Below are positions 1,837-30,076 of a stretch of DNA of 64,000 nucleotides, one piece after another. The notes under the pieces were generated by a model. That model was not told the origin of the DNA and did not search any database. It was given only the letters and a program-made list of their open reading frames with translations. The translations under genes were made by a program, and so were the position numbers. Source of the stretch: a phage. Location of the stretch: the sequence record PZ452584.1. One strand, 5' to 3'. Position 1 is the first letter of the stretch; every line of letters begins with the position of its first letter.

Positions 1837-1864
1837 TATTAAAGCATATTAAAGAGGATTAAAA

Positions 1865-3844
1865 ATGACTTTATTATCTCCGGGCATTGAGCTCAAAGAA
1901 ACTACGGTTCAAAGCACCGTGGTTAATAACTCTACTGGTACAGCAGCTTTGGCCGGTAAATTCCAGTGGGGTCCTGCTTTTCAGATTAAACAGGTTACAA
2001 ATGAAGTAGATTTAGTTAATACTTTTGGTCAACCAACCGCTGAAACTGCTGACTATTTTATGTCTGCGATGAATTTCTTGCAGTACGGAAATGACTTACG
2101 AGTAGTTCGTGCTGTTGATAGAGATACCGCTAAAAACTCATCTCCGATTGCCGGTAATATTGAATACACAATTTCTACCCCAGGTAGTAACTACGCAGTT
2201 GGAGATAAAATCACGGTCAAATATGTTTCAGATGCTATTGAAACTGAAGGTAAAATTACTGAAGTAGACACAGATGGAAAAATTAAGAAAATTAATATTC
2301 CTACTGCAAAAATTATCGCTAAAGCTAAAGAAGTCGGTGAATATCCAACACTAGGTTCTAACTGGACTGCGGAAATTTCTTCATCTTCCTCTGGTTTAGC
2401 TGCAGTAATAACCCTTGGAAAAATTATTACTGATTCTGGTATTTTATTAGCTGAAATTGAAAATGCTGAAGCTGCTATGACAGCGGTTGACTTTCAAGCA
2501 AATCTTAAAAAATACGGAATTCCAGGAGTAGTAGCGCTTTATCCAGGCGAATTAGGCGATAAAATTGAAATTGAAATCGTATCTAAAGCTGACTATGCAA
2601 AAGGAGCTTCTGCATTACTCCCAATTTATCCAGGTGGTGGTACTCGTGCATCTACTGCCAAAGCAGTGTTTGGATATGGACCACAAACTGATTCACAGTA
2701 TGCTATTATAGTTCGTCGTAATGATGCTATTGTTCAAAGCGTTGTTCTTTCAACTAAGCGCGGTGAAAAAGATATTTACGATAGTAACATCTATATCGAT
2801 GACTTTTTCGCAAAAGGCGGCTCAGAATATATTTTTGCAACTGCACAAAACTGGCCAGAAGGCTTCTCTGGAATTTTAACTCTGTCTGGTGGATTATCAT
2901 CAAATGCTGAAGTAACAGCAGGAGATTTGATGGAAGCTTGGGACTTCTTTGCTGACCGTGAATCTGTTGACGTTCAACTGTTTATTGCAGGTTCTTGTGC
3001 CGGTGAATCTTTAGAAACAGCATCTACTGTCCAAAAACACGTCGTTTCAATTGGGGATGCTCGCCAGGATTGCTTAGTATTGTGCTCACCACCGCGTGAA
3101 ACTGTAGTTGGAATTCCTGTAACTCGTGCTGTTGATAACTTAGTCAATTGGAGAACTGCGGCAGGTTCATACACTGATAATAACTTTAATATCAGTTCAA
3201 CCTACGCAGCAATCGACGGTAACTACAAATATCAGTATGACAAATATAATGATGTGAATCGTTGGGTTCCATTAGCAGCTGATATTGCTGGTTTATGTGC
3301 AAGAACTGATAACGTATCTCAGACTTGGATGTCACCAGCTGGTTATAATCGTGGCCAGATTCTTAACGTTATTAAACTTGCTATTGAAACTCGCCAAGCT
3401 CAGCGCGACCGTTTATACCAAGAAGCTATCAACCCGGTAACCGGTACAGGTGGTGATGGTTACGTATTGTATGGTGATAAAACAGCTACTTCTGTTCCTT
3501 CTCCATTTGATCGTATTAACGTTCGTCGTCTGTTTAATATGTTGAAAACGAACATAGGACGTAGTTCAAAATATCGTTTGTTCGAATTAAACAATGCGTT
3601 TACTCGTTCATCATTCCGCACAGAAACTGCCCAATACTTACAGGGAATTAAAGCTCTCGGTGGAATTTATGAATATCGTGTAGTTTGCGATACAACAAAT
3701 AACACTCCGTCAGTAATTGATAGAAATGAGTTTGTTGCAACATTCTACATCCAACCTGCGCGCAGTATAAATTATATTACTTTGAATTTCGTCGCAACTG
3801 CTACTGGTGCAGATTTCGATGAGTTAACTGGTCTTGCAGGTTAA
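1865..3844 (+). CDS. 18: Contractile tail sheath protein
   Basis: 659 aa, same length as T4 gp18; position after 17; late promoter upstream. Confidence 0.96.
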   Translation: MTLLSPGIELKETTVQSTVVNNSTGTAALAGKFQWGPAFQIKQVTNEVDLVNTFGQPTAETADYFMSAMNFLQYGNDLRVVRAVDRDTAKNSSPIAGNIEYTISTPGSNYAVGDKITVKYVSDAIETEGKITEVDTDGKIKKINIPTAKIIAKAKEVGEYPTLGSNWTAEISSSSSGLAAVITLGKIITDSGILLAEIENAEAAMTAVDFQANLKKYGIPGVVALYPGELGDKIEIEIVSKADYAKGASALLPIYPGGGTRASTAKAVFGYGPQTDSQYAIIVRRNDAIVQSVVLSTKRGEKDIYDSNIYIDDFFAKGGSEYIFATAQNWPEGFSGILTLSGGLSSNAEVTAGDLMEAWDFFADRESVDVQLFIAGSCAGESLETASTVQKHVVSIGDARQDCLVLCSPPRETVVGIPVTRAVDNLVNWRTAAGSYTDNNFNISSTYAAIDGNYKYQYDKYNDVNRWVPLAADIAGLCARTDNVSQTWMSPAGYNRGQILNVIKLAIETRQAQRDRLYQEAINPVTGTGGDGYVLYGDKTATSVPSPFDRINVRRLFNMLKTNIGRSSKYRLFELNNAFTRSSFRTETAQYLQGIKALGGIYEYRVVCDTTNNTPSVIDRNEFVATFYIQPARSINYITLNFVATATGADFDELTGLAG

Positions 3845-3860
3845 TACGGTGCATTCTAAA

Positions 3861-3878
3861 GGCCTGTTTCGGCAGGCC
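3861..3878 (+). terminator. Hairpin after gene 18
   Basis: GGCCTG-TTTCGG-CAGGCC. Confidence 0.6.
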
Positions 3879-3879
3879 A

Positions 3880-3887
3880 TATAAATA
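3880..3887 (+). promoter_or_regulatory. Late promoter TATAAATA upstream of gene 19 (distal)
   Basis: Exact motif after hairpin. Confidence 0.65.
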
Positions 3888-3938
3888 CACTATATCCTTA
3901 ATTCTTTAATTCTATATGCCCTAGGTTAAACATAGGGA

Positions 3939-7442: not shown

Positions 7443-8252
7443 ATGCTTAAAGAACAACTGATTGCCGAAGCGCAGAAAATTGATGCTTCCGTTGCTCTTG
7501 ATAGTATTTTCGAATCAGTTAATATTTCTCCGGAAGCAAAAGAAACTTTCGGCACTGTATTCGAAGCTACCGTCAAGCAGCACGCCGTTAAATTAGCTGA
7601 ATCTCATATCGCTAAAATTGCTGAAAAAGCAGAAGAAGAAGTAGAAAAAAATAAAGAAGAAGCCGAAGAAAAAGCTGAGAAGAAAATCGCTGAGCAAGCT
7701 TCTAAATTCATTGACCATCTTGCAAAAGAATGGCTCGCTGAAAATAAATTAGCAGTTGATAAAGGCATCAAAGCCGAACTGTTTGAATCCATGCTTGGTG
7801 GATTAAAAGAGCTCTTTGTTGAACACAACGTTGTTGTTCCAGAAGAATCAGTTGATGTTGTAGCTGAAATGGAAGAAGAGCTGCAAGAACATAAAGAAGA
7901 ATCAGCTCGTCTGTTCGAAGAACTCAATATGCGCGACGCATATATCAATTATGTGCAGCGTGAAGTGGCATTGAGCGAAAGTACTAAAGATCTGACTGAG
8001 TCTCAAAAAGAAAAAGTCTCTGCTCTGGTCGAAGGTATGGATTATTCAGATGAATTCTCAAATAAATTGAGTGCCATCGTAGAAATGGTGAAGAAGTCTA
8101 ATAAAGATGAAAGCACTATTACTGAGGGTATAAATACTCCTGATACTGAAGCAGCCGGACTGAATTTCGTCACTGAAGCTGTAGAAGATAAAGCTGCACA
8201 GGGTGCAGAAGATATTGTAAGTGTATATGCGAAAGTCGCATCTCGTTTCTAA
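7443..8252 (+). CDS. 22: Prohead scaffolding core protein
   Basis: 269 aa, E/K-rich coiled-coil composition; late promoter upstream. Confidence 0.93.
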   Translation: MLKEQLIAEAQKIDASVALDSIFESVNISPEAKETFGTVFEATVKQHAVKLAESHIAKIAEKAEEEVEKNKEEAEEKAEKKIAEQASKFIDHLAKEWLAENKLAVDKGIKAELFESMLGGLKELFVEHNVVVPEESVDVVAEMEEELQEHKEESARLFEELNMRDAYINYVQREVALSESTKDLTESQKEKVSALVEGMDYSDEFSNKLSAIVEMVKKSNKDESTITEGINTPDTEAAGLNFVTEAVEDKAAQGAEDIVSVYAKVASRF

Positions 8253-8270
8253 TTTTAAAGGTTAACACAA

Positions 8271-9836
8271 ATGACTATCAAAACTAAAGCTGAACTTTTG
8301 AACAAATGGAAGCCATTACTGGAAGGTGAAGGTTTACCGGAAATTGCTAATAGCAAACAAGCGATTATCGCTAAAATCTTTGAAAACCAGGAAAAAGATT
8401 TCCAGACAGCTCCGGAATATAAAGACGAAAAAATTGCTCAGGCATTCGGTTCTTTCTTAACAGAAGCTGAAATCGGCGGTGACCACGGTTACAATGCTAC
8501 TAACATTGCTGCAGGTCAGACTTCTGGCGCAGTAACTCAGATTGGCCCAGCTGTTATGGGTATGGTACGTCGTGCTATTCCTAACCTGATTGCTTTCGAT
8601 ATTTGTGGTGTTCAGCCGATGAACAGCCCGACTGGCCAGGTATTCGCACTGCGCGCAGTATACGGTAAAGACCCAATCGCTTCCGATGCTAAAGAAGCAT
8701 TCCACCCAATGTATGGTCCAGATGCAATGTTCTCTGGTCAGGGTGCTGCTAAGAAATTCCCAGCTCTGGCTGCTAGCACACAAACCACAGTAGGTGATAT
8801 CTATACTCACTTCTTCCAGGAAACTGGTACTGTATATCTGCAAGCTTCTGTTCAAGTAACAATCGATGCTGGCGCGACTGATGCTGCTAAATTAGATGCT
8901 GAAATTAAGAAACAAATGGAAGCTGGTGCACTGGTAGAAATCGCTGAAGGTATGGCTACTTCTATCGCTGAACTTCAGGAAGGTTTCAACGGTTCTACCG
9001 ATAACCCATGGAATGAAATGGGCTTCCGTATCGATAAACAAGTTATCGAAGCTAAATCTCGTCAGCTGAAAGCTGCTTACTCTATCGAATTAGCACAAGA
9101 CCTCCGCGCTGTTCACGGTATGGATGCTGATGCTGAACTGTCTGGTATTCTGGCTACCGAAATCATGCTGGAAATCAACCGTGAAGTTGTTGATTGGATT
9201 AACTACTCCGCTCAGGTTGGTAAATCTGGTATGACCCTGACTCCGGGTTCTAAAGCTGGTGTATTCGACTTCCAGGATCCGATTGATATTCGTGGTGCTC
9301 GCTGGGCGGGTGAATCCTTTAAAGCTCTGTTGTTCCAGATTGACAAAGAAGCAGTTGAAATTGCTCGTCAGACCGGTCGTGGTGAAGGTAACTTCATTAT
9401 CGCTTCCCGTAACGTAGTTAACGTTCTGGCTTCAGTTGATACCGGCATTTCTTATGCTGCACAGGGTCTGGCTACCGGCTTTAACACTGATACTACCAAG
9501 TCAGTATTTGCTGGTGTTCTGGGTGGTAAATACCGTGTATATATCGACCAGTATGCTAAACAGGATTATTTCACTGTAGGTTATAAAGGTCCGAATGAAA
9601 TGGATGCTGGTATTTACTATGCTCCATATGTAGCTCTGACTCCGCTGCGTGGTTCCGATCCGAAGAACTTCCAACCGGTAATGGGGTTCAAAACTCGTTA
9701 CGGTATCGGTATCAACCCATTTGCAGAATCCGCTGCTCAGGCTCCGGCTTCTCGCATCCAGAGCGGTATGCCTTCTATTCTGAATAGCCTTGGTAAAAAC
9801 GCTTACTTCCGCCGTGTATATGTTAAAGGTATCTAA
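8271..9836 (+). CDS. 23: Major capsid protein
   Basis: 521 aa; high-expression codon usage; UUCG hairpin terminator downstream. Confidence 0.97.
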   Translation: MTIKTKAELLNKWKPLLEGEGLPEIANSKQAIIAKIFENQEKDFQTAPEYKDEKIAQAFGSFLTEAEIGGDHGYNATNIAAGQTSGAVTQIGPAVMGMVRRAIPNLIAFDICGVQPMNSPTGQVFALRAVYGKDPIASDAKEAFHPMYGPDAMFSGQGAAKKFPALAASTQTTVGDIYTHFFQETGTVYLQASVQVTIDAGATDAAKLDAEIKKQMEAGALVEIAEGMATSIAELQEGFNGSTDNPWNEMGFRIDKQVIEAKSRQLKAAYSIELAQDLRAVHGMDADAELSGILATEIMLEINREVVDWINYSAQVGKSGMTLTPGSKAGVFDFQDPIDIRGARWAGESFKALLFQIDKEAVEIARQTGRGEGNFIIASRNVVNVLASVDTGISYAAQGLATGFNTDTTKSVFAGVLGGKYRVYIDQYAKQDYFTVGYKGPNEMDAGIYYAPYVALTPLRGSDPKNFQPVMGFKTRYGIGINPFAESAAQAPASRIQSGMPSILNSLGKNAYFRRVYVKGI

Positions 9837-9851
9837 TCTTTGACGATTTAA

Positions 9852-9867
9852 GGGACCTTCGGGTCCC
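9852..9867 (+). terminator. UUCG-loop hairpin after gene 23
   Basis: GGGACC-TTCG-GGTCCC then T-rich. Confidence 0.7.
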
Positions 9868-9884
9868 TTTAGTTGTTTTTATGG

Positions 9885-9892
9885 TATAAATA
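9885..9892 (+). promoter_or_regulatory. Late promoter TATAAATA for gene 24
   Basis: Exact motif. Confidence 0.75.
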
Positions 9893-9919
9893 AATCATAT
9901 AAACCAAAAGGAAAGCGCA

Positions 9920-11203
9920 ATGGCTAAAATCAACGAACTTCTGCGCGAATCAACCACAACGAATAGCAACTCAATCGGTCGCCCAAATCTCGTTGCTTTG
10001 ACTCGCGCTACCACTAAATTAATATATTCTGACATTGTAGCAACGCAAAGAACTAATCAACCTGTTGCTGCTTTTTATGGTATCAAATACCTTAACCCAG
10101 ACAACGAATTTACATTTAAAACTGGTGCTACTTATGCTGGCGAAGCTGGATATGTAGACCGAGAACAAATCACAGAATTAACAGAAGAGTCTAAATTAAC
10201 TCTCAATAAAGGCGATTTATTCAAATATAATAATATCGTTTATAAAGTATTAGAAGATACACCATTTGCTGATATTGAAGAAAGCGACTTAGAGTTAGCT
10301 CTTCAGATTGCAATTGTTCTTTTAAAGGTTCGTCTATTTTCTGACGCAGCGTCAACAAGCAAATTTGAAAGCTCTGATAGTGAAATTGCGGATGCTAGAT
10401 TCCAGATTAATAAATGGCAAACCGCAGTTAAATCTCGTAAACTTAAAACTGGCATCACAGTTGAATTAGCACAAGATTTAGAAGCAAATGGATTCGATGC
10501 TCCTAATTTCTTGGAAGATTTGCTTGCAACTGAAATGGCAGATGAAATCAATAAAGATATTCTGCAGTCTTTGATTACAGTGTCAAAACGCTATAAAGTT
10601 ACAGGAATTACTGATAGTGGATTCATCGATTTGAGTTATGCATCTGCACCTGAAGCTGGTCGTTCATTATACCGAATGGTATGTGAAATGGTTTCGCATA
10701 TCCAAAAAGAATCAACTTATACAGCAACGTTCTGTGTTGCTTCAGCTCGTGCTGCTGCGATTCTTGCTGCATCAGGTTGGTTAAAACATAAACCAGAAGA
10801 TGATAAATATCTTTCACAAAATGCCTACGGGTTCTTAGCTAATGGTTTACCGCTTTATTGCGATACTAATAGCCCATTAGATTATGTAATCGTTGGTGTA
10901 GTAGAAAATATCGGTGAAAAAGAAATTGTTGGATCAATTTTCTATGCTCCGTATACAGAAGGTCTTGACTTAGATGACCCTGAACATGTAGGTGCATTTA
11001 AAGTTGTAGTTGACCCAGAAAGTTTGCAGCCATCTATCGGTTTATTAGTTAGATATGCTTTATCTGCAAATCCTTACACTGTAGCAAAAGATGAAAAAGA
11101 AGCAAGAATAATTGATGGTGGAGACATGGATAAAATGGCGGGTCGTTCAGATTTGTCTGTTTTATTAGGTGTTAAGCTACCAAAAATTATCATTGATGAA
11201 TAA
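9920..11203 (+). CDS. 24: Capsid vertex protein (paralogue of major capsid protein)
   Basis: 427 aa; late promoter at 9885; T4 order. Confidence 0.94.
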   Translation: MAKINELLRESTTTNSNSIGRPNLVALTRATTKLIYSDIVATQRTNQPVAAFYGIKYLNPDNEFTFKTGATYAGEAGYVDREQITELTEESKLTLNKGDLFKYNNIVYKVLEDTPFADIEESDLELALQIAIVLLKVRLFSDAASTSKFESSDSEIADARFQINKWQTAVKSRKLKTGITVELAQDLEANGFDAPNFLEDLLATEMADEINKDILQSLITVSKRYKVTGITDSGFIDLSYASAPEAGRSLYRMVCEMVSHIQKESTYTATFCVASARAAAILAASGWLKHKPEDDKYLSQNAYGFLANGLPLYCDTNSPLDYVIVGVVENIGEKEIVGSIFYAPYTEGLDLDDPEHVGAFKVVVDPESLQPSIGLLVRYALSANPYTVAKDEKEARIIDGGDMDKMAGRSDLSVLLGVKLPKIIIDE

Positions 11204-25301: not shown

Positions 25302-25305
25302 CAAC

Positions 25306-25323
25306 GGGGACCTTTCGGTCCCC
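25306..25323. terminator. Bidirectional hairpin between 54 and alt.-3
   Basis: GGGGACC-TTTC-GGTCCCC. Confidence 0.7.
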
Positions 25324-25329
25324 ATATTT

Positions 25330-25620
25330 TTATTTGCGGAATGAAATGAAAGCAGAAACTGAAGCAACTAAACTGTCTTCAATATAAACTTCAATTTTTA
25401 CCGGAGCTTCTGATTCAAATTTACCTGTTACTACACCTTGGAAAATACTTTCAGTCTGTTCTGGCTTTGAAAAATTTTCAGAAGGAAAAATTCCGAACTT
25501 TTTATCTGTTCCAAAAATTTTGATAAATTCATCGTAAACTGCTTCATTAAAAGCATTATCAGCAGGAATAACGCCTTCAACTACAAGTTCTTGACCTAAA
25601 AAGCGTAAAGAAGATTTCAT
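25330..25620 (-). CDS. Hypothetical protein (alt.-3 position) with early promoter
   Basis: 96 aa; GAGGA SD; early promoter cassette immediately upstream. Confidence 0.7.
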   Translation of the reverse strand: MKSSLRFLGQELVVEGVIPADNAFNEAVYDEFIKIFGTDKKFGIFPSENFSKPEQTESIFQGVVTGKFESEAPVKIEVYIEDSLVASVSAFISFRK

Positions 25621-25627
25621 TTTGTGT

Positions 25628-25681
25628 TCCTCATGTTATGTCAGTAAGACTACTATAACACAACACGAGGGACTTGTAAAC
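25628..25681 (-). repeat. 54-bp early promoter + leader cassette, copy 1
   Basis: Identical to 40285..40338. Confidence 0.9.
25652..25681 (-). promoter_or_regulatory. Early promoter (GTTTACA-17-TATAGT)
   Basis: T4 early consensus -35 GTTTAC with sigma70-like -10. Confidence 0.7.
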
Positions 25682-27738
25682 TACATTTTGAACTTTTTAG
25701 ACATTCCGTTGATGTTAACCAAAGAAGCCAAGATTTGAGAAACTTCGTTTTCCTCTTCTTTTGATTCTTCTACAAGGAATTGATTAAATCCAGCCATTGG
25801 GCGAACTTCACCAGTTTCCATTAGATGGTCGCCATCATATACTGATTCTTCTAATTGTTCAGAAGGAGGAACGATTGTACCTTCGATTAGATACTTGTTA
25901 TAAGCAGTTTCTTTCATAAAGTACGTGCTCACTTTATTAATCTTCAGTAAAATTCCACGTGGTAGAATAACTTCAGCTTCTGATGGAAATCCTGATAAAT
26001 GACCCGGAACGATAACTTTAATTCGCTCAGCTCCTTTAATTACCATACCCACGCTAGTTTCAGCATCTTCATTAGCATATGTAGAATGACTACCCATATG
26101 CATCAAATCTTCTGCATCAACAGAACCTTCTCCTTCGCCAGAAAATACTGCACCGGAATCATCTAGAGCCATATAGTTTTTACCATGCTCACCGAAGATA
26201 TTTGGTTTAAGCGATGTGGATACGAAGTTCTTGAAATAGAACATTTTGTTTTCAATGTTATGACGCAAAGTTTTAAAGGTAACTTCTTGTCCACGGTAAA
26301 GTGTAGTTCCTGGAGGAAGAACTGAACCTTTAGCGAATGCAGAATCCAACGTCTCGATGTGCTTAATAGCTCGTTCCATATATTCTTCACGGGTAGAATC
26401 TGGTTTACCCAAAAGGAACGAGTTCATTTCAACATATGAATCTGCACAATAATCTTCAATTACATCAGATTCAGCTTGAGTTAATCCTTTTGGAGTTACT
26501 TCGGTGCTTGCGTATTCATATGCCTGAGCGGCAGATTCATTAATCAATTTATAAATGCCATTCATGACAAATTGAATAATAGCTGTCTTTTCATCTGGCG
26601 TAGCTTTAGAACCTTTAACTAAATCATTGATAATTTTCTTAATAACATCAAAGCTATTAGAAATATTAATGTCAGCAAGATCGCTTAAAATTTTATCAGT
26701 TTTATAATCAAAGAATTCTTTATTCTTTAAATATTCTTGAGAACCTTGATATGTTATATCGCTCTGCAACTTGATAGATGGATCACGTAAACGCGCATGG
26801 GCTAATGCAATATGATTTCGGAAGTTTTCTAGTTCATAATCGCTAGATTTAAAACGAGAAGCACTCCTCATACCACCGATAGCTCCTTTGCTGAAGTTTG
26901 AACCAATCTGAATAACGCCAGAGTTCATTGGTCCTTCTGCTTTATATACCGGAACTTTAGATTCAAACTCTTGATATTTCTTAGCAGCGAAGCTATCACC
27001 CTGAAGTGAAGCATCAACAGTAGAATATTGAGCTTGTGCTGCTAATCGACGACTAATTTTAGTTTTCTGAATAACAGCTTGGTCCGTGCGCTTATCATTT
27101 TCTAAAGCAATAGAAGCAGCAACAGCGACAGCTTTAGGAACAGCATTACCTGTTTTAACGTCTACATAAACATCACCAACCTTTGATTCAACTTTTGTGA
27201 ATAACTCAGTTGAAATAGGAGGTACACCTGGAATGTCTTCTAAATTGGCATTTTTACGGTAAACCATAATATATGCATACTTTTTATCATAGTCCCAGAT
27301 TTCCTTTAAAAGAACATATCGACCTGCTCCTTTAGTACGTACTAAACGGTCAGCAATAACTTGCATTTGACGAGCAGCGCCATTTGTTTTACTTTTTAGT
27401 ACGCGGAATAGGCATGCGTCAATTTTATACTGTTTCATTGTTTGAAGAGCAGTATCAAAAACAGCATTAATGACGCCAATTGGATTTCCACCCAAGTTTC
27501 TAAGCTTAACCAGCGATAATTTCTCGTTGACACCTATCATTACGATATGCATCATTTTATCGCCTGGCTTAACGTTTTTATTCGTATCACCACCAGAGGT
27601 GTATGTACAAAATCTAAATCCAGGAAGCACGCTTTCTTCGCCGGCTTGAATAGCAAAAATTTGTGGTATTTTATGCTTAGGATTTAAGTTAACAACCGGC
27701 GCCGAAGCGCCGTCAAATAATTCTGTAATAAGTTCCAT
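25681..27738 (-). CDS. Alt-like ADP-ribosyltransferase paralogue (full length)
   Basis: 685 aa; N-terminal ~200 aa near-identical to Alt; Arg / STS / EAE motifs retained. Confidence 0.88.
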   Translation of the reverse strand: MELITELFDGASAPVVNLNPKHKIPQIFAIQAGEESVLPGFRFCTYTSGGDTNKNVKPGDKMMHIVMIGVNEKLSLVKLRNLGGNPIGVINAVFDTALQTMKQYKIDACLFRVLKSKTNGAARQMQVIADRLVRTKGAGRYVLLKEIWDYDKKYAYIMVYRKNANLEDIPGVPPISTELFTKVESKVGDVYVDVKTGNAVPKAVAVAASIALENDKRTDQAVIQKTKISRRLAAQAQYSTVDASLQGDSFAAKKYQEFESKVPVYKAEGPMNSGVIQIGSNFSKGAIGGMRSASRFKSSDYELENFRNHIALAHARLRDPSIKLQSDITYQGSQEYLKNKEFFDYKTDKILSDLADINISNSFDVIKKIINDLVKGSKATPDEKTAIIQFVMNGIYKLINESAAQAYEYASTEVTPKGLTQAESDVIEDYCADSYVEMNSFLLGKPDSTREEYMERAIKHIETLDSAFAKGSVLPPGTTLYRGQEVTFKTLRHNIENKMFYFKNFVSTSLKPNIFGEHGKNYMALDDSGAVFSGEGEGSVDAEDLMHMGSHSTYANEDAETSVGMVIKGAERIKVIVPGHLSGFPSEAEVILPRGILLKINKVSTYFMKETAYNKYLIEGTIVPPSEQLEESVYDGDHLMETGEVRPMAGFNQFLVEESKEEENEVSQILASLVNINGMSKKFKM

Positions 27739-27741
27739 GAT

Positions 27742-29835
27742 TTATCCTTGAACGAACTTGTAAGGCATGTTTGTAATATCTATGCAAGACGCAATAATTC
27801 CAAGAGATGATTCTACTTTCTGTTTAACATTTGATGAAACAAATGATGCAAAGTCAACTCTGTCTTCTACTTCAATATCACCTGTCATTGCAACTACTTC
27901 GCCGGTTTCCATTAGACGGTCGCCGTCATAAATTACCGATTCGGTGAGTTCTTCCGTAGTCATAACTTCAGCTTGAATGAGTTTTGTATTATTAGATGTT
28001 GTTCCGTCATTATTAGAAGCATCAGTTATTTTATTAACTTTGACCATCAATCCGCGCGGTAGAATAACTTCAGCTTCTGTTGCTATTCCGAGACTTCCTG
28101 GATATACAACATTAACTTTATGAGCTCCATCAATTGCCCATCCTATTTGAACTTTAACGTATTCAGGATTTTCTTTATACGCTCTTATTTCGTTTGGATT
28201 AATAGTTATTCCTTCTTCATTTTTATCAACTGTCAATTCATTACGAGCTTCTGGTTCTAAAAGACCAATACCAGCATGTGTAATTCCAAAACGTCCAAAA
28301 ATGATAGGAGTTAAAGAAGTAGATACAAAATTTCTGAAATAGAACACTTTATTTTTAACTAGTGCTTCGTATATAGGAGCAGTCATACTTTGAGCACGAT
28401 AAACTGTGATGCCTTCCGGTATGCGGTCACCATTTTCAAAAGCTGAATCTAAGTTATTTATAGCAGATTCAATTTCTTTTTCACTCATTACATCATATCG
28501 TTCTGGATTGTAACGACCTAAAAGAAGATTATTGATGTCTGTATATCCTGAACCACAATACTCTCTAATGCCGCGCTTTTGTGATGGAGTATATTTAGAA
28601 CCATCACGGGCAATAGTAATATCAATCATTGGACCTGCACCAATTCCGGAAAAACTATAAATCATTCGTTTGAGGAATTTAGTTTTTGCCGCATTCCAGG
28701 CATTTTTAGTTATTTCTCCCCAGACTTCATCTGACTGCCCTTTACGAGTTTTATTATGTTTATCAAGCCAATTATCTTTGTATTCTTCAAAGAATTTATT
28801 AACAGCTGCTGCGTATTTCTCTAAACATTTTATTGAAGTAGTTGGTTCATTTTTGATTGCGTTAAAAATTACATCTTTAATTTTTTCTGAAACTTCATCA
28901 ACCTCACTTTTTGAAAAGAATTTATAGTCATAGTGAAGTTCATTCGCAGTTCCTTCGGCAATAATTTTTGCTGCCTTAGTTTTAGAAGCTAATGAATTAA
29001 TTCCAAGCTTCATTTCTTCTGCTTCGGGAATTAAAGGAGCGGTAGCAGGTTTATTGAAATTAGCTGCGGTAGATTCATACTTCTGGAATAATTCACTTTC
29101 AAATCTAGAAGATTCCAATGATTGACTTTGCGCAATTGCTCTACGGGAAATTTTAACTTTAACGATTACAGCTTGGTCAGAACGTTTATCATTTTCTTGT
29201 GCAATAGATGCTGCAATTGCCTCATTTTTAGTTACTTGAGCCCCAGTATCTTTATTGATATAAACATCACCGACCTTCGATTCAACTTTAGTAAAGAGCT
29301 CGGTACTAATTTCCGGAACTCCTGGAATGTCTTCTAGTGATGCATTTTTGCGATGTATAAGAATATATGCATACTTTTTATCATAATCCCAGAGTTCCTT
29401 AAGAAGGACGTATCTGCCACCTGAACGACTACGGATAAGTCTATCAGCAATAACTTGAATTTGTCGAGCTTGACCAGCGGTTTTAGACTTAAGAATACGG
29501 AGCATACAGGCATCAATTTTATACTGACGCATAGTTTGCATTGCAACAGTAAAAACTGAATTGATATAATTAATTGGGCTTGGACCAAGACCTTTCAATT
29601 TAGCAATTGAACCTTTAGCAGTTAATGTAAAAGGAACAATATGCATCATTTTATCGCCCATTTTTAAATCGCGATTAGTATCACCTCCAGATGTATAGGT
29701 ACATAAACGAAAGCCTGGTTGTTCAATTGCATCATCAACATGAACTGAAAAAATTTGTGGTATTTTCTTCTTTGGATTTAAGTTTGTAATCGGAAGAGTA
29801 GTATCTTCGTCAAATAATTCTGTAATGAGTTCCAT
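27742..29835 (-). CDS. alt: Alt ADP-ribosyltransferase (capsid-packaged, modifies host RNA polymerase)
   Basis: 697 aa from ATG 29835; N-terminus MELITELFDEDTTLPITNLNPKK; R-STS-EAE motifs; minus-strand late promoter at 29859. Confidence 0.93.
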   Translation of the reverse strand: MELITELFDEDTTLPITNLNPKKKIPQIFSVHVDDAIEQPGFRLCTYTSGGDTNRDLKMGDKMMHIVPFTLTAKGSIAKLKGLGPSPINYINSVFTVAMQTMRQYKIDACMLRILKSKTAGQARQIQVIADRLIRSRSGGRYVLLKELWDYDKKYAYILIHRKNASLEDIPGVPEISTELFTKVESKVGDVYINKDTGAQVTKNEAIAASIAQENDKRSDQAVIVKVKISRRAIAQSQSLESSRFESELFQKYESTAANFNKPATAPLIPEAEEMKLGINSLASKTKAAKIIAEGTANELHYDYKFFSKSEVDEVSEKIKDVIFNAIKNEPTTSIKCLEKYAAAVNKFFEEYKDNWLDKHNKTRKGQSDEVWGEITKNAWNAAKTKFLKRMIYSFSGIGAGPMIDITIARDGSKYTPSQKRGIREYCGSGYTDINNLLLGRYNPERYDVMSEKEIESAINNLDSAFENGDRIPEGITVYRAQSMTAPIYEALVKNKVFYFRNFVSTSLTPIIFGRFGITHAGIGLLEPEARNELTVDKNEEGITINPNEIRAYKENPEYVKVQIGWAIDGAHKVNVVYPGSLGIATEAEVILPRGLMVKVNKITDASNNDGTTSNNTKLIQAEVMTTEELTESVIYDGDRLMETGEVVAMTGDIEVEDRVDFASFVSSNVKQKVESSLGIIASCIDITNMPYKFVQG

Positions 29836-29858
29836 CATATCCTCTCTAGTGTTTATTC

Positions 29859-29866
29859 TATTTATA
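29859..29866 (-). promoter_or_regulatory. Late promoter TATAAATA for alt
   Basis: Minus-strand motif 25 nt upstream of alt ATG. Confidence 0.7.
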
Positions 29867-29874
29867 AAATTAAA

Positions 29875-29886
29875 GGCCCGAAGGCC
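29875..29886 (-). terminator. Hairpin between ligase-side ORF and alt promoter
   Basis: GGCC-CGAA-GGCC flanked by T/A runs. Confidence 0.55.
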
Positions 29887-29887
29887 T

Positions 29888-30076
29888 TTAATAATCTAGT
29901 GGTAAGAGAGTACGGTATATTTCAAACTTTGGACCTTTTTCATAGGCATCAAATGTTTCTGTGAATTTATTATAAGCATATGCATCTACAAATTCGAGAA
30001 TGACTTGTGATACAGAAGTAGAAACATCTCCACCTTCTTTTTGAGCAATGACAATTGTTTCTAAGTAAGCTTTCAT
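29888..30076 (-). CDS. Hypothetical small protein between alt and ligase
   Basis: 62 aa ORF; start overlaps ligase stop. Confidence 0.5.
   Translation of the reverse strand: MKAYLETIVIAQKEGGDVSTSVSQVILEFVDAYAYNKFTETFDAYEKGPKFEIYRTLLPLDY

Follow-up and report, generated by a model that had tools for sequence, protein, structure and literature searches.

A second full-length Alt-type ADP-ribosyltransferase gene adjoining alt in a T-even phage, and its deletion remnant in T4

Two adjoining Alt-type genes

The 64,000-nucleotide (nt) stretch of phage DNA analysed here (sequence record PZ452584.1; hereafter the window, with position 1 as its first letter) contains two adjoining open reading frames (ORFs) on the minus strand, which the ORF list places at 25681..27738 (685 amino acids, aa) and 27742..29838 (698 aa), with 3 nt between them. 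The upstream ORF is referred to as Alt and the downstream ORF as Alt2, and all positions given below are on the minus strand unless stated otherwise. The length of 698 aa for Alt is counted from the first ATG; a second ATG at 29835 gives 697 aa, equals the annotated start of T4 Alt (MELITE) and is better suited to the GAGAGG ribosome-binding site. Alt of phage T4 (gpAlt, NP_049811) is a head-packaged, injected NAD+:arginine mono-ADP-ribosyltransferase with targets including Arg265 of the RNA polymerase alpha subunit.

Both ORFs exceed the gathering score of Pfam family PF03496 (71.9 and 128.7 bits, against a cut-off of 23.4) and match phrog_802, "Alt-like RNA polymerase ADP-ribosyltransferase", from end to end (E = 1e-256 and 1e-272). 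Aligned with each other by BLASTP they are 41% identical (E = 1e-163). This similarity is far above chance, and the two are unmistakable paralogues. A preliminary description of this DNA, prepared from the letters without database searches, had proposed two Alt-type ORFs of 685 and 697-698 aa in tandem on the minus strand, and the ORF list, BLASTP, PF03496 and phrog_802 all confirm it.

Modular architecture and divergence

Alt and Alt2 are each composed of three modules: an N-terminal module (N-module) of ~240 aa, a helical central module of ~180 aa, and a C-terminal ADP-ribosyltransferase (ART) domain, after which the L-x-E motif for cleavage by gp21 opens a disordered tail of 54-65 residues. 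The central module is specific to the lineage. In Alt2, the N-module covers residues 1-238 (27025..27738; PF26846, Tevenvirinae_ADPRT) and holds the crossover points of the fusion genes described below. The first ~200 residues of the two proteins had been called near-identical in the preliminary description. A shared module is indeed present, but near-identity is an overstatement: residues 1-100 are 58% identical, residues 101-200 are 76% identical and the value over residues 1-238 is 68%, with identity limited to MELITELFD.

The divergence noted for the remaining regions was reproduced. The central module of Alt2 (residues ~239-415, 26494..27024, delimited by identity, hhalign and a structural model) is 14-18% identical to Alt and is modelled as all-helical, with a predicted local distance difference test score (pLDDT) of 85-92. 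No homology between the two central modules was detectable by hhalign (probability 0.5%), a comparison of shallow profiles of 6 and 4 sequences in which extreme divergence is possible. The ART domains (residues 416-625) are ~35% identical, with a value of only 11% in an insert at 521-575, and the C-terminal tails 36-46%.

PF26846 and PF03496 are both precomputed on the 99% identical cluster representative P0001, and PF26846 on both genes of related contigs. The N-module is rare and specific to the Alt family of T4-like phages, with 69 cluster representatives among 1.84 billion proteins, and is N-terminal in all of them. The idea that it is a general packaging handle for effectors other than ARTs found essentially no support, as nearly all of the 69 representatives measure 600-712 aa and eight of the ten atypical ones scanned keep PF03496. 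Two proteins, P0183 (485 aa) and P0184 (541 aa), combine a weak N-module match (E ~1e-7) with the lack of a Pfam ART domain and may carry the N-module on another body.

The slot for Alt between gene 30/alt.1 and alt.-3/gene 54 is present in the window and, judged by position and sequence, the window Alt is the positional orthologue of T4 Alt but another allele, of the T2/T6/RB32 type. Relative to T4 Alt (T4 extract L001, 6455-8503) it is 72% identical overall, with 99-100% over the N-terminal 238 aa, ~30% in the central module, 36-77% in the ART domain and 91% at the C-terminus. Alt2 is 41-43% identical to T4 Alt, and its body is nearer to Alt of the JS10 type (44-56% identity) than to the neighbouring Alt (12-35%). 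Phage AR1 and Bas35 have T4-type Alt together with Alt2, and both Alt alleles circulate with or without Alt2. In slur03, a 697-aa Alt, attributed to the window-type allele from its length, stands beside a remnant of Alt2. Neither for the window Alt nor for Alt2 can the targets demonstrated for T4 Alt be taken as given.

Catalytic motif and fold

The Arg / STS / EAE triad reported in the preliminary description is retained in both ORFs, and no catalytic residue is lost on alignment. In Alt2, alignment with the paralogue and with toxins places the catalytic arginine in Y481-R482-G483 (26290..26298) and the ExE motif at E587-A-E589 (25972..25980), while the S507-T508-S509 motif was aligned at 26212..26220. 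The corresponding elements of Alt are Y479-R480-A481 (28393..28401), S505-T-S507 (28315..28323) and E587-A-E589 (28069..28077). STS is invariant in the family alignment. In the R-S-E clade of ADP-ribosyltransferases, the ExE motif goes with arginine specificity.

A phmmer search of PDB sequences with full-length Alt2 returned no match at E <= 0.01, and matches were obtained with the ART-domain profile alone. The profile, built from three ART domains, matches CdtA (2.5e-7) and iota toxin Ia, with YR aligned on the catalytic arginine and EAE on the ExE motif of the toxins (EyE in CdtA). The AlphaFold2 model of Alt2 (pLDDT 74.7, predicted template modelling score (pTM) 0.59) consists of an alpha/beta N-domain (~12-225), an all-helical central part (~240-470) and the ART domain (~470-625), and is disordered at residues 1-11 and 629-685. 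The fold was checked on the Alt2 model only. Its ART domain retrieved Vis, Certhrax, C3bot, CDTa, VIP2 and iota toxin Ia from the PDB by Foldseek at E = 5e-8 to 1e-4; for Vis, C3bot, CDTa, VIP2 and iota Ia the match probability was 1.00 and the target-normalised TM-score 0.6-0.68. The N-terminal and central modules of Alt2 matched no PDB structure in this search. On the basis of alignment and model, the C-terminal module is assigned as an R-S-ExE ADP-ribosyltransferase domain of the C3/VIP2/iota/CDTa/Vis type.

Predicted late expression and processing

A perfect match to the T4-type late promoter, TATAAATA, is located at 29859..29866, 21 nt before the Alt start codon, an arrangement found alike in T4. 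This promoter probably drives Alt and Alt2 as one late transcript. No late promoter lies directly before Alt2, and the gene is therefore most simply described as co-transcribed late with Alt. The Alt stop codon TAA occupies 27744-27742 and is followed, after the 3-nt spacer, by the Alt2 ATG at 27738, so that the Shine-Dalgarno element of Alt2, AAGGA (27745..27749), falls within the last Alt codons. Upstream of the promoter, just past alt.1, the GC-rich hairpin AAAGGCC-TTCG-GGCCTTT with a T-rich tail was read from the sequence at 29872..29889, unlisted by a simple terminator scan. The corresponding site in the record of phage G28 bears the label of a putative terminator, and in the window the hairpin would shield the Alt operon from upstream transcription.

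T4 Alt is a protein of the prohead core, present in ~40 copies, which gp21 cuts at ITE-6 and, according to mass spectrometry, at LTE-619, giving a mature protein of 68.2 kDa (PMC5694885, PMC9026906). Alt-family ARTs are likewise abundant in virions of other T4-like phages, with ~190 peptide-spectrum matches for Klebsiella phages (PMC13119998). Motif mapping located candidates for both cleavage sites in each window protein. In Alt, they are I-T-E at codons 4-6 (29818..29826) and L-T-E at codons 630-632 (27940..27948), the latter equivalent to LTE-619. In Alt2, I-T-E at codons 4-6 (27721..27729) equals the ITE-6 site of T4 Alt, and L-E-E at codons 629-631 (25846..25854) is aligned with LTE-619. 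Both Alt2 motifs, ITE-6 and LEE-631, are identical in nine of nine orthologues. The predicted mature Alt2 would comprise residues 7-631 (69.2 kDa), and the same mapping applied to T4 Alt reproduces 68.2 kDa. Moreover, the predicted propeptides of Alt2 fall on the two ends that the model shows as disordered.

Selection and age

Alt2 measures exactly 685 aa in all nine genomes sampled, which span a synonymous divergence (dS) of ~0.19. The ratio of nonsynonymous to synonymous divergence (dN/dS) over these genomes is 0.052, with 0.018 in the N-module, 0.09 in the central module and 0.05 in the ART domain; for the 697-aa Alt allele a value of 0.059 was obtained from 8 orthologues. Alt2 is under strong purifying selection, and none of the marks of a remnant or pseudogene (truncation, frameshift, relaxed selection) was found in the intact gene.

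Between Alt and Alt2, dS amounts to 1.0-1.5 and is saturated throughout, including the N-module, compared with 0.13-0.19 among orthologues. The duplication is thus ancient, and the likeness of the N-termini is attributed to constraint rather than to recent conversion. Recent gene conversion of the N-module was considered separately and rejected on the dS of 1.5 in this region and a longest shared exact DNA word of 24 nt.

Origin of alt.-1 and alt.-2 in T4

The T4 reference carries alt (682 aa) and two short frames, alt.-1 (61 aa) and alt.-2 (67 aa), in agreement with the preliminary description; these stubs stand where an intact second copy lies in the window. When the alt.-1/alt.-2 region is aligned to Alt2, the first ~116 codons are kept, a 1-nt deletion splits them into two ORFs, and the last few codons follow. 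Accordingly, T4 alt.-1 and alt.-2 match Alt2 residues 1-56 and 62-117. The missing part begins at codon 117, leaves only the last five codons, and corresponds to a deletion of 1,699 bp between two 9-bp direct repeats, CTAAAAAGT, which in the window lie at 27391..27399 (copy 1, Alt2 nt 340-348, the left breakpoint) and 25692..25700 (copy 2, Alt2 nt 2039-2047, the right breakpoint). T4 holds a single CTAAAAAGT copy with the left context of repeat 1 and the right context of repeat 2.

The identical junction is found in slur03, HY03 and Salmonella phage pSe_SNUABM_01, and the microhomology deletion is thus natural and common to several phages rather than a product of the laboratory. Records of the remnant type number ~96 of 498. 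According to a note in the T4 record, the stubs are "an old duplication of the first part of gene alt", whereas the present data fit a deleted full-length paralogue. The alt.-1 family phrog_23015 scores 138 bits on Alt2 versus 78 on Alt, and the alt.-2 family phrog_15247 scores 129 versus 70; as both score better on Alt2, the T4 stubs represent a deleted Alt2 rather than a partial duplication of alt.

The HY03 record (NC_031047, extract L004, 3858-7354) has a further peculiarity. In it, alt is annotated as no more than a fragment of 214 aa, and unrelated plus-strand ORFs come next in place of alt.1 and the ligase gene; a rearrangement, a break in the assembly or an insertion could be responsible.

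Occurrence and annotation

Of 498 matching phage records, 402 contain the whole of the Alt2 gene with DNA identities of 95-99%. At the protein level, ~400 phage records have a match to Alt2 of at least 95% identity, and one (phage vB_EcoM-CHD94UKE2) has a match of 100%. At least 80% of the two-gene locus is spanned by 344 records, comprising T2, T6, RB27, RB32 and RB33 as well as phages of Shigella, Yersinia, Salmonella and Citrobacter. The 90%-identity cluster of Alt2 has 772 member sequences in a collection of 5.8 billion proteins. The order ligase-Alt-Alt2-DUF5498-gp54 is kept even in a diverged T4-like contig in which Alt2 is 74% identical.

The gene appears in records under several names: "alt.-2" in RB32 and RB68, "Alt-like RNA polymerase ADP-ribosyltransferase", given twice, in RefSeq (T2, T6 and others), and "ADP-ribosyltransferase Alt2" beside "ADP-ribosyltransferase Alt" in the BASEL phages Bas35, 38, 41, 42 and 44. 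The tandem arrangement of alt and alt2 is the ordinary, already known and annotated state of T-even phages, and T4 is the exception. The genes of the window have public counterparts at 98-100% identity. The structural reading of the preliminary description, two full-length Alt paralogues with intact catalytic motifs set against a single one in T4, holds. What it implied about the rarity of the pair does not, as this is the majority state of Tequatrovirus (~400 of ~500 records) and annotated as such. Paralogues of alt in T4-like phages, one of them full-length in 44RR, were noted by Nolan et al. in 2006 (PMC1524935). The HIDEN-SEQ preprint mentions neither Alt2 nor bas37_0032.

Some irregularities were met among the records. 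LR597657.1, "Escherichia phage T4_ev240", has an intact Alt2 (99.6% protein identity) in a locus of the window type, unlike reference T4, and may be a recombinant, an evolved derivative or a naming issue. In the GEP001 record (extract L011, 2401-6555) both Alt genes are mislabelled "DNA ligase", and alt.1 is mislabelled "siderophore-interacting protein" in both GEP001 and T6 (AP018814, extract L006, 6608-6796). The T4-like Acinetobacter phages ZZ1 and Henu6 (BFVD I3WW50, A0A410T5F4 and A0A410T542) have Alt as two ORFs, annotated as "split RNA polymerase ADP-ribosylase".

Fusion genes and locus states

Several database proteins join an Alt2-type body (97-100% identical) to an Alt-type N-terminus through one clean crossover. 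Such an Alt-N::Alt2 fusion stands alone between alt.1 and alt.-3 in a 65-kb contig, in ECML-134, in SCS4 and in Yersinia phage PST; the genes lie at 1852-3912 in the extracts of ECML-134 (NC_025449, L016) and PST (NC_027404, L017), at 5001-7055 in L015 and at 5001-7061 in L014. The crossovers map to residues ~54-80, 98-110, 147-158, 174-192 and 218-224. As these positions differ, unequal recombination within the N-module has taken place independently at least five times, each time with deletion of the Alt body. An origin of the fusions as chimeras of metagenome assembly was rejected, as the same single-gene state occurs, with differing crossovers, in the complete isolate genomes of ECML-134, SCS4 and PST.

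Four states of the Tequatrovirus locus can thus be distinguished: Alt, in either allele, with Alt2; Alt with the remnant; a single Alt-N::Alt2 fusion; and intermediate combinations of alleles. The natural fusions show that one N-module can functionally take the place of the other, and that the sole Alt-family gene at the locus can be one with an Alt2 body. The alt locus may operate as a cassette system, in which the conserved N-terminal packaging module provides a recombination handle for swapping, fusing and deleting effector bodies. The four locus states and the five or more fusion crossovers would fit this view.

Surrounding genes

Over the 4.8-kb locus, identity is 98.3% to RB33/RB32 and 97.5% to T2 and T6, and on this comparison the window phage is classified as a Tequatrovirus, ~98% identical to RB32/RB33. 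The order of minus-strand genes around the pair is alt.-3 (DUF5498), Alt2, Alt, alt.1, DNA ligase gp30 and 30.1, flanked on the plus strand by gp29, gp48 and gp54 of the T-even set. Gene list and Pfam place alt.-3 (DUF5498, 96 aa) at 25330..25620, and alt.1 is listed at 29888..30076. A promoter-like site resembling sigma-70 and T4 early promoters (TTTACA-17 nt-TATAGT with a TG extension, 25680..25652) occupies the 60-nt gap past Alt2, and alt.-3 is probably expressed apart from the late alt-alt2 transcript. In T4, alt.-3 mutants with an extended C-terminus evade CmdTAC, a defence system (PMC11618068). The genes gp54 and alt.-3 converge on a strong hairpin, GGGGACC-TTTC-GGTCCCC, at 25304..25325 (both strands), which resembles a bidirectional terminator. 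Elsewhere in the window, the GC content rises locally to 0.44 at 8001..10000, compared with ~0.35-0.37 in the remainder.

Proposed function of Alt2

The data are best described by a second head-packaged, injected arginine ADP-ribosyltransferase with targets of its own. We regard this interpretation of Alt2 as reasonably probable, and we infer packaging, processing, injection, activity and the difference in targets from sequence and structural model. Late transcription of both genes would start at the TATAAATA promoter ahead of alt. The two proteins would then enter the prohead core, be cut by gp21 at both ends with loss of the six-residue propeptide MELITE, and be injected with the DNA. Each would mono-ADP-ribosylate arginines of host proteins from NAD+ at the very start of infection. 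Given unrelated central modules and an identity of only ~35% between the ART domains, the two enzymes most likely modify different host proteins. The shared N-module, both gp21 motifs, the late promoter, a dN/dS of ~0.05 and the unrelated central module are all consistent with a packaged effector. Moreover, T4 Alt, but not Bas37 Alt, has been reported to counter Mokosh type I (preprint 10.1101/2025.11.20.689424), from which it follows that Alt alleles differ in function.

Several points weigh against this interpretation. T4 and ~19% of the related records are without Alt2, which must be dispensable on some hosts at least. ECML-134 and PST carry an Alt2-type body only, and the existence of such phages could mean that the two bodies are interchangeable rather than distinct. 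The part played by the central module in the choice of target is an assumption, and the structural model of Alt2 is of moderate confidence, as judged by its pTM. Finally, the literature search returned no functional study of Alt2 or of a second alt gene.

The alternative that survives best, albeit one we consider rather unlikely, is a redundant backup: Alt2 would be packaged and active on the same host proteins as Alt, e.g. RNA polymerase alpha, and raise dosage or robustness. Fold, catalytic motif, N-module and processing sites are common to both proteins, and either body alone seems sufficient, as T4-type phages live without Alt2 and ECML-134 and PST without the Alt body. Yet both copies are kept at a dN/dS of ~0.05 in hundreds of genomes despite a saturated dS, with central modules that lack detectable homology and an insert in the ART domain that has diverged far beyond its surroundings. 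Simple redundancy does not predict long retention of duplicates as divergent as these, and functional differences are already known among Alt alleles themselves.

Alternatively, Alt2 might not be injected at all and instead act late in the producing cell, or contribute to the structure or assembly of the head. The late promoter, taken alone, would suit a late intracellular function too, but the Alt-family N-module, the ITE-6 propeptide and the C-terminal L-x-E are all conserved, and the natural fusions put the Alt N-module on an Alt2 body as the only Alt-family gene of the locus. Packaged cargo fits these features better than a cytoplasmic enzyme, and we consider this alternative improbable. 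That Alt2 is a decaying duplicate, a pseudogene in the making, might be suggested by the remnants in T4, slur03, HY03 and a Salmonella phage but is hardly conceivable for a protein of constant length in the nine genomes, with all catalytic and processing motifs retained and ~400 closely similar records, and is refuted by the selection test.

The proposal of a second injected transferase can be taken further, to a distinct injected effector that acts on host targets spared by Alt, possibly in anti-defence, in ~80% of T-even-like phages, with the alt locus perhaps serving as a cassette system. Our confidence in this extended version is evenly divided. As Alt alleles differ in their action against a defence system (Mokosh type I), Alt2 is an obvious candidate for a further activity in host takeover or anti-defence. 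If the proposal is true, Alt2 would have been overlooked because the T4 reference lost it by a microhomology deletion. Knowledge of injected ADP-ribosyltransferases rests almost wholly on T4; as T4 is a deletion variant, a second enzyme, so far uncharacterised, is probably injected by T2, T6, RB32 and the majority of natural isolates. The alt locus also offers a clean natural case of modular effector evolution, in which a packaging module is shared, the central modules are unrelated, and fusions and deletions recur. As a genome feature the tandem pair is ordinary. Its value lies in a conserved, apparently unstudied candidate for an injected enzyme that is missing from the T4 model. The present analysis adds the deletion origin of the T4 stubs, the selection on Alt2 and its age, the retained gp21 motifs and late promoter, the unrelated central module and the fusion genes.

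Comparison with known systems

With T4 Alt the window proteins share the three-module layout, the N-module, the R-S-ExE domain, gp21 motifs at both ends, the late promoter and the genomic slot. Alt2 differs from it in an overall identity of 41% and in an unrelated central module. The annotated second copies of RB32/RB68, T2/T6 and the BASEL phages are the same gene as the window Alt2: they occupy the same slot at 95-99% DNA identity, with no difference of substance. Tandem or duplicated Alt-family genes next to alt, as in the window, also occur in 44RR (ORF187c/188c) and RB49 (ORF183c), both described by Nolan et al. in 2006, and in Citrobacter phage CF1, Salmonella phage Melville and Dhakavirus dhaeg. 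These pairs form distinct lineages at 30-50% identity, and may descend from the same duplication or from independent ones.

Within the T4 phage group, ModA and ModB are also ARTs of the Alt/VIP2 clade (PMC5512222). Unlike Alt and Alt2, they measure ~200 aa, are made early, remain unpackaged and are devoid of the N-terminal and central modules. The bacterial R-S-E toxins Vis, Certhrax, C3bot, VIP2, iota Ia and CDTa resemble Alt2 in the ART fold and in the aligned catalytic arginine and ExE motif, albeit at a sequence identity of only 15-20%. Conversely, the parts concerned with delivery are unrelated, as binary-toxin adaptor domains are found in the toxins and a phage head-packaging module in the Alt family.

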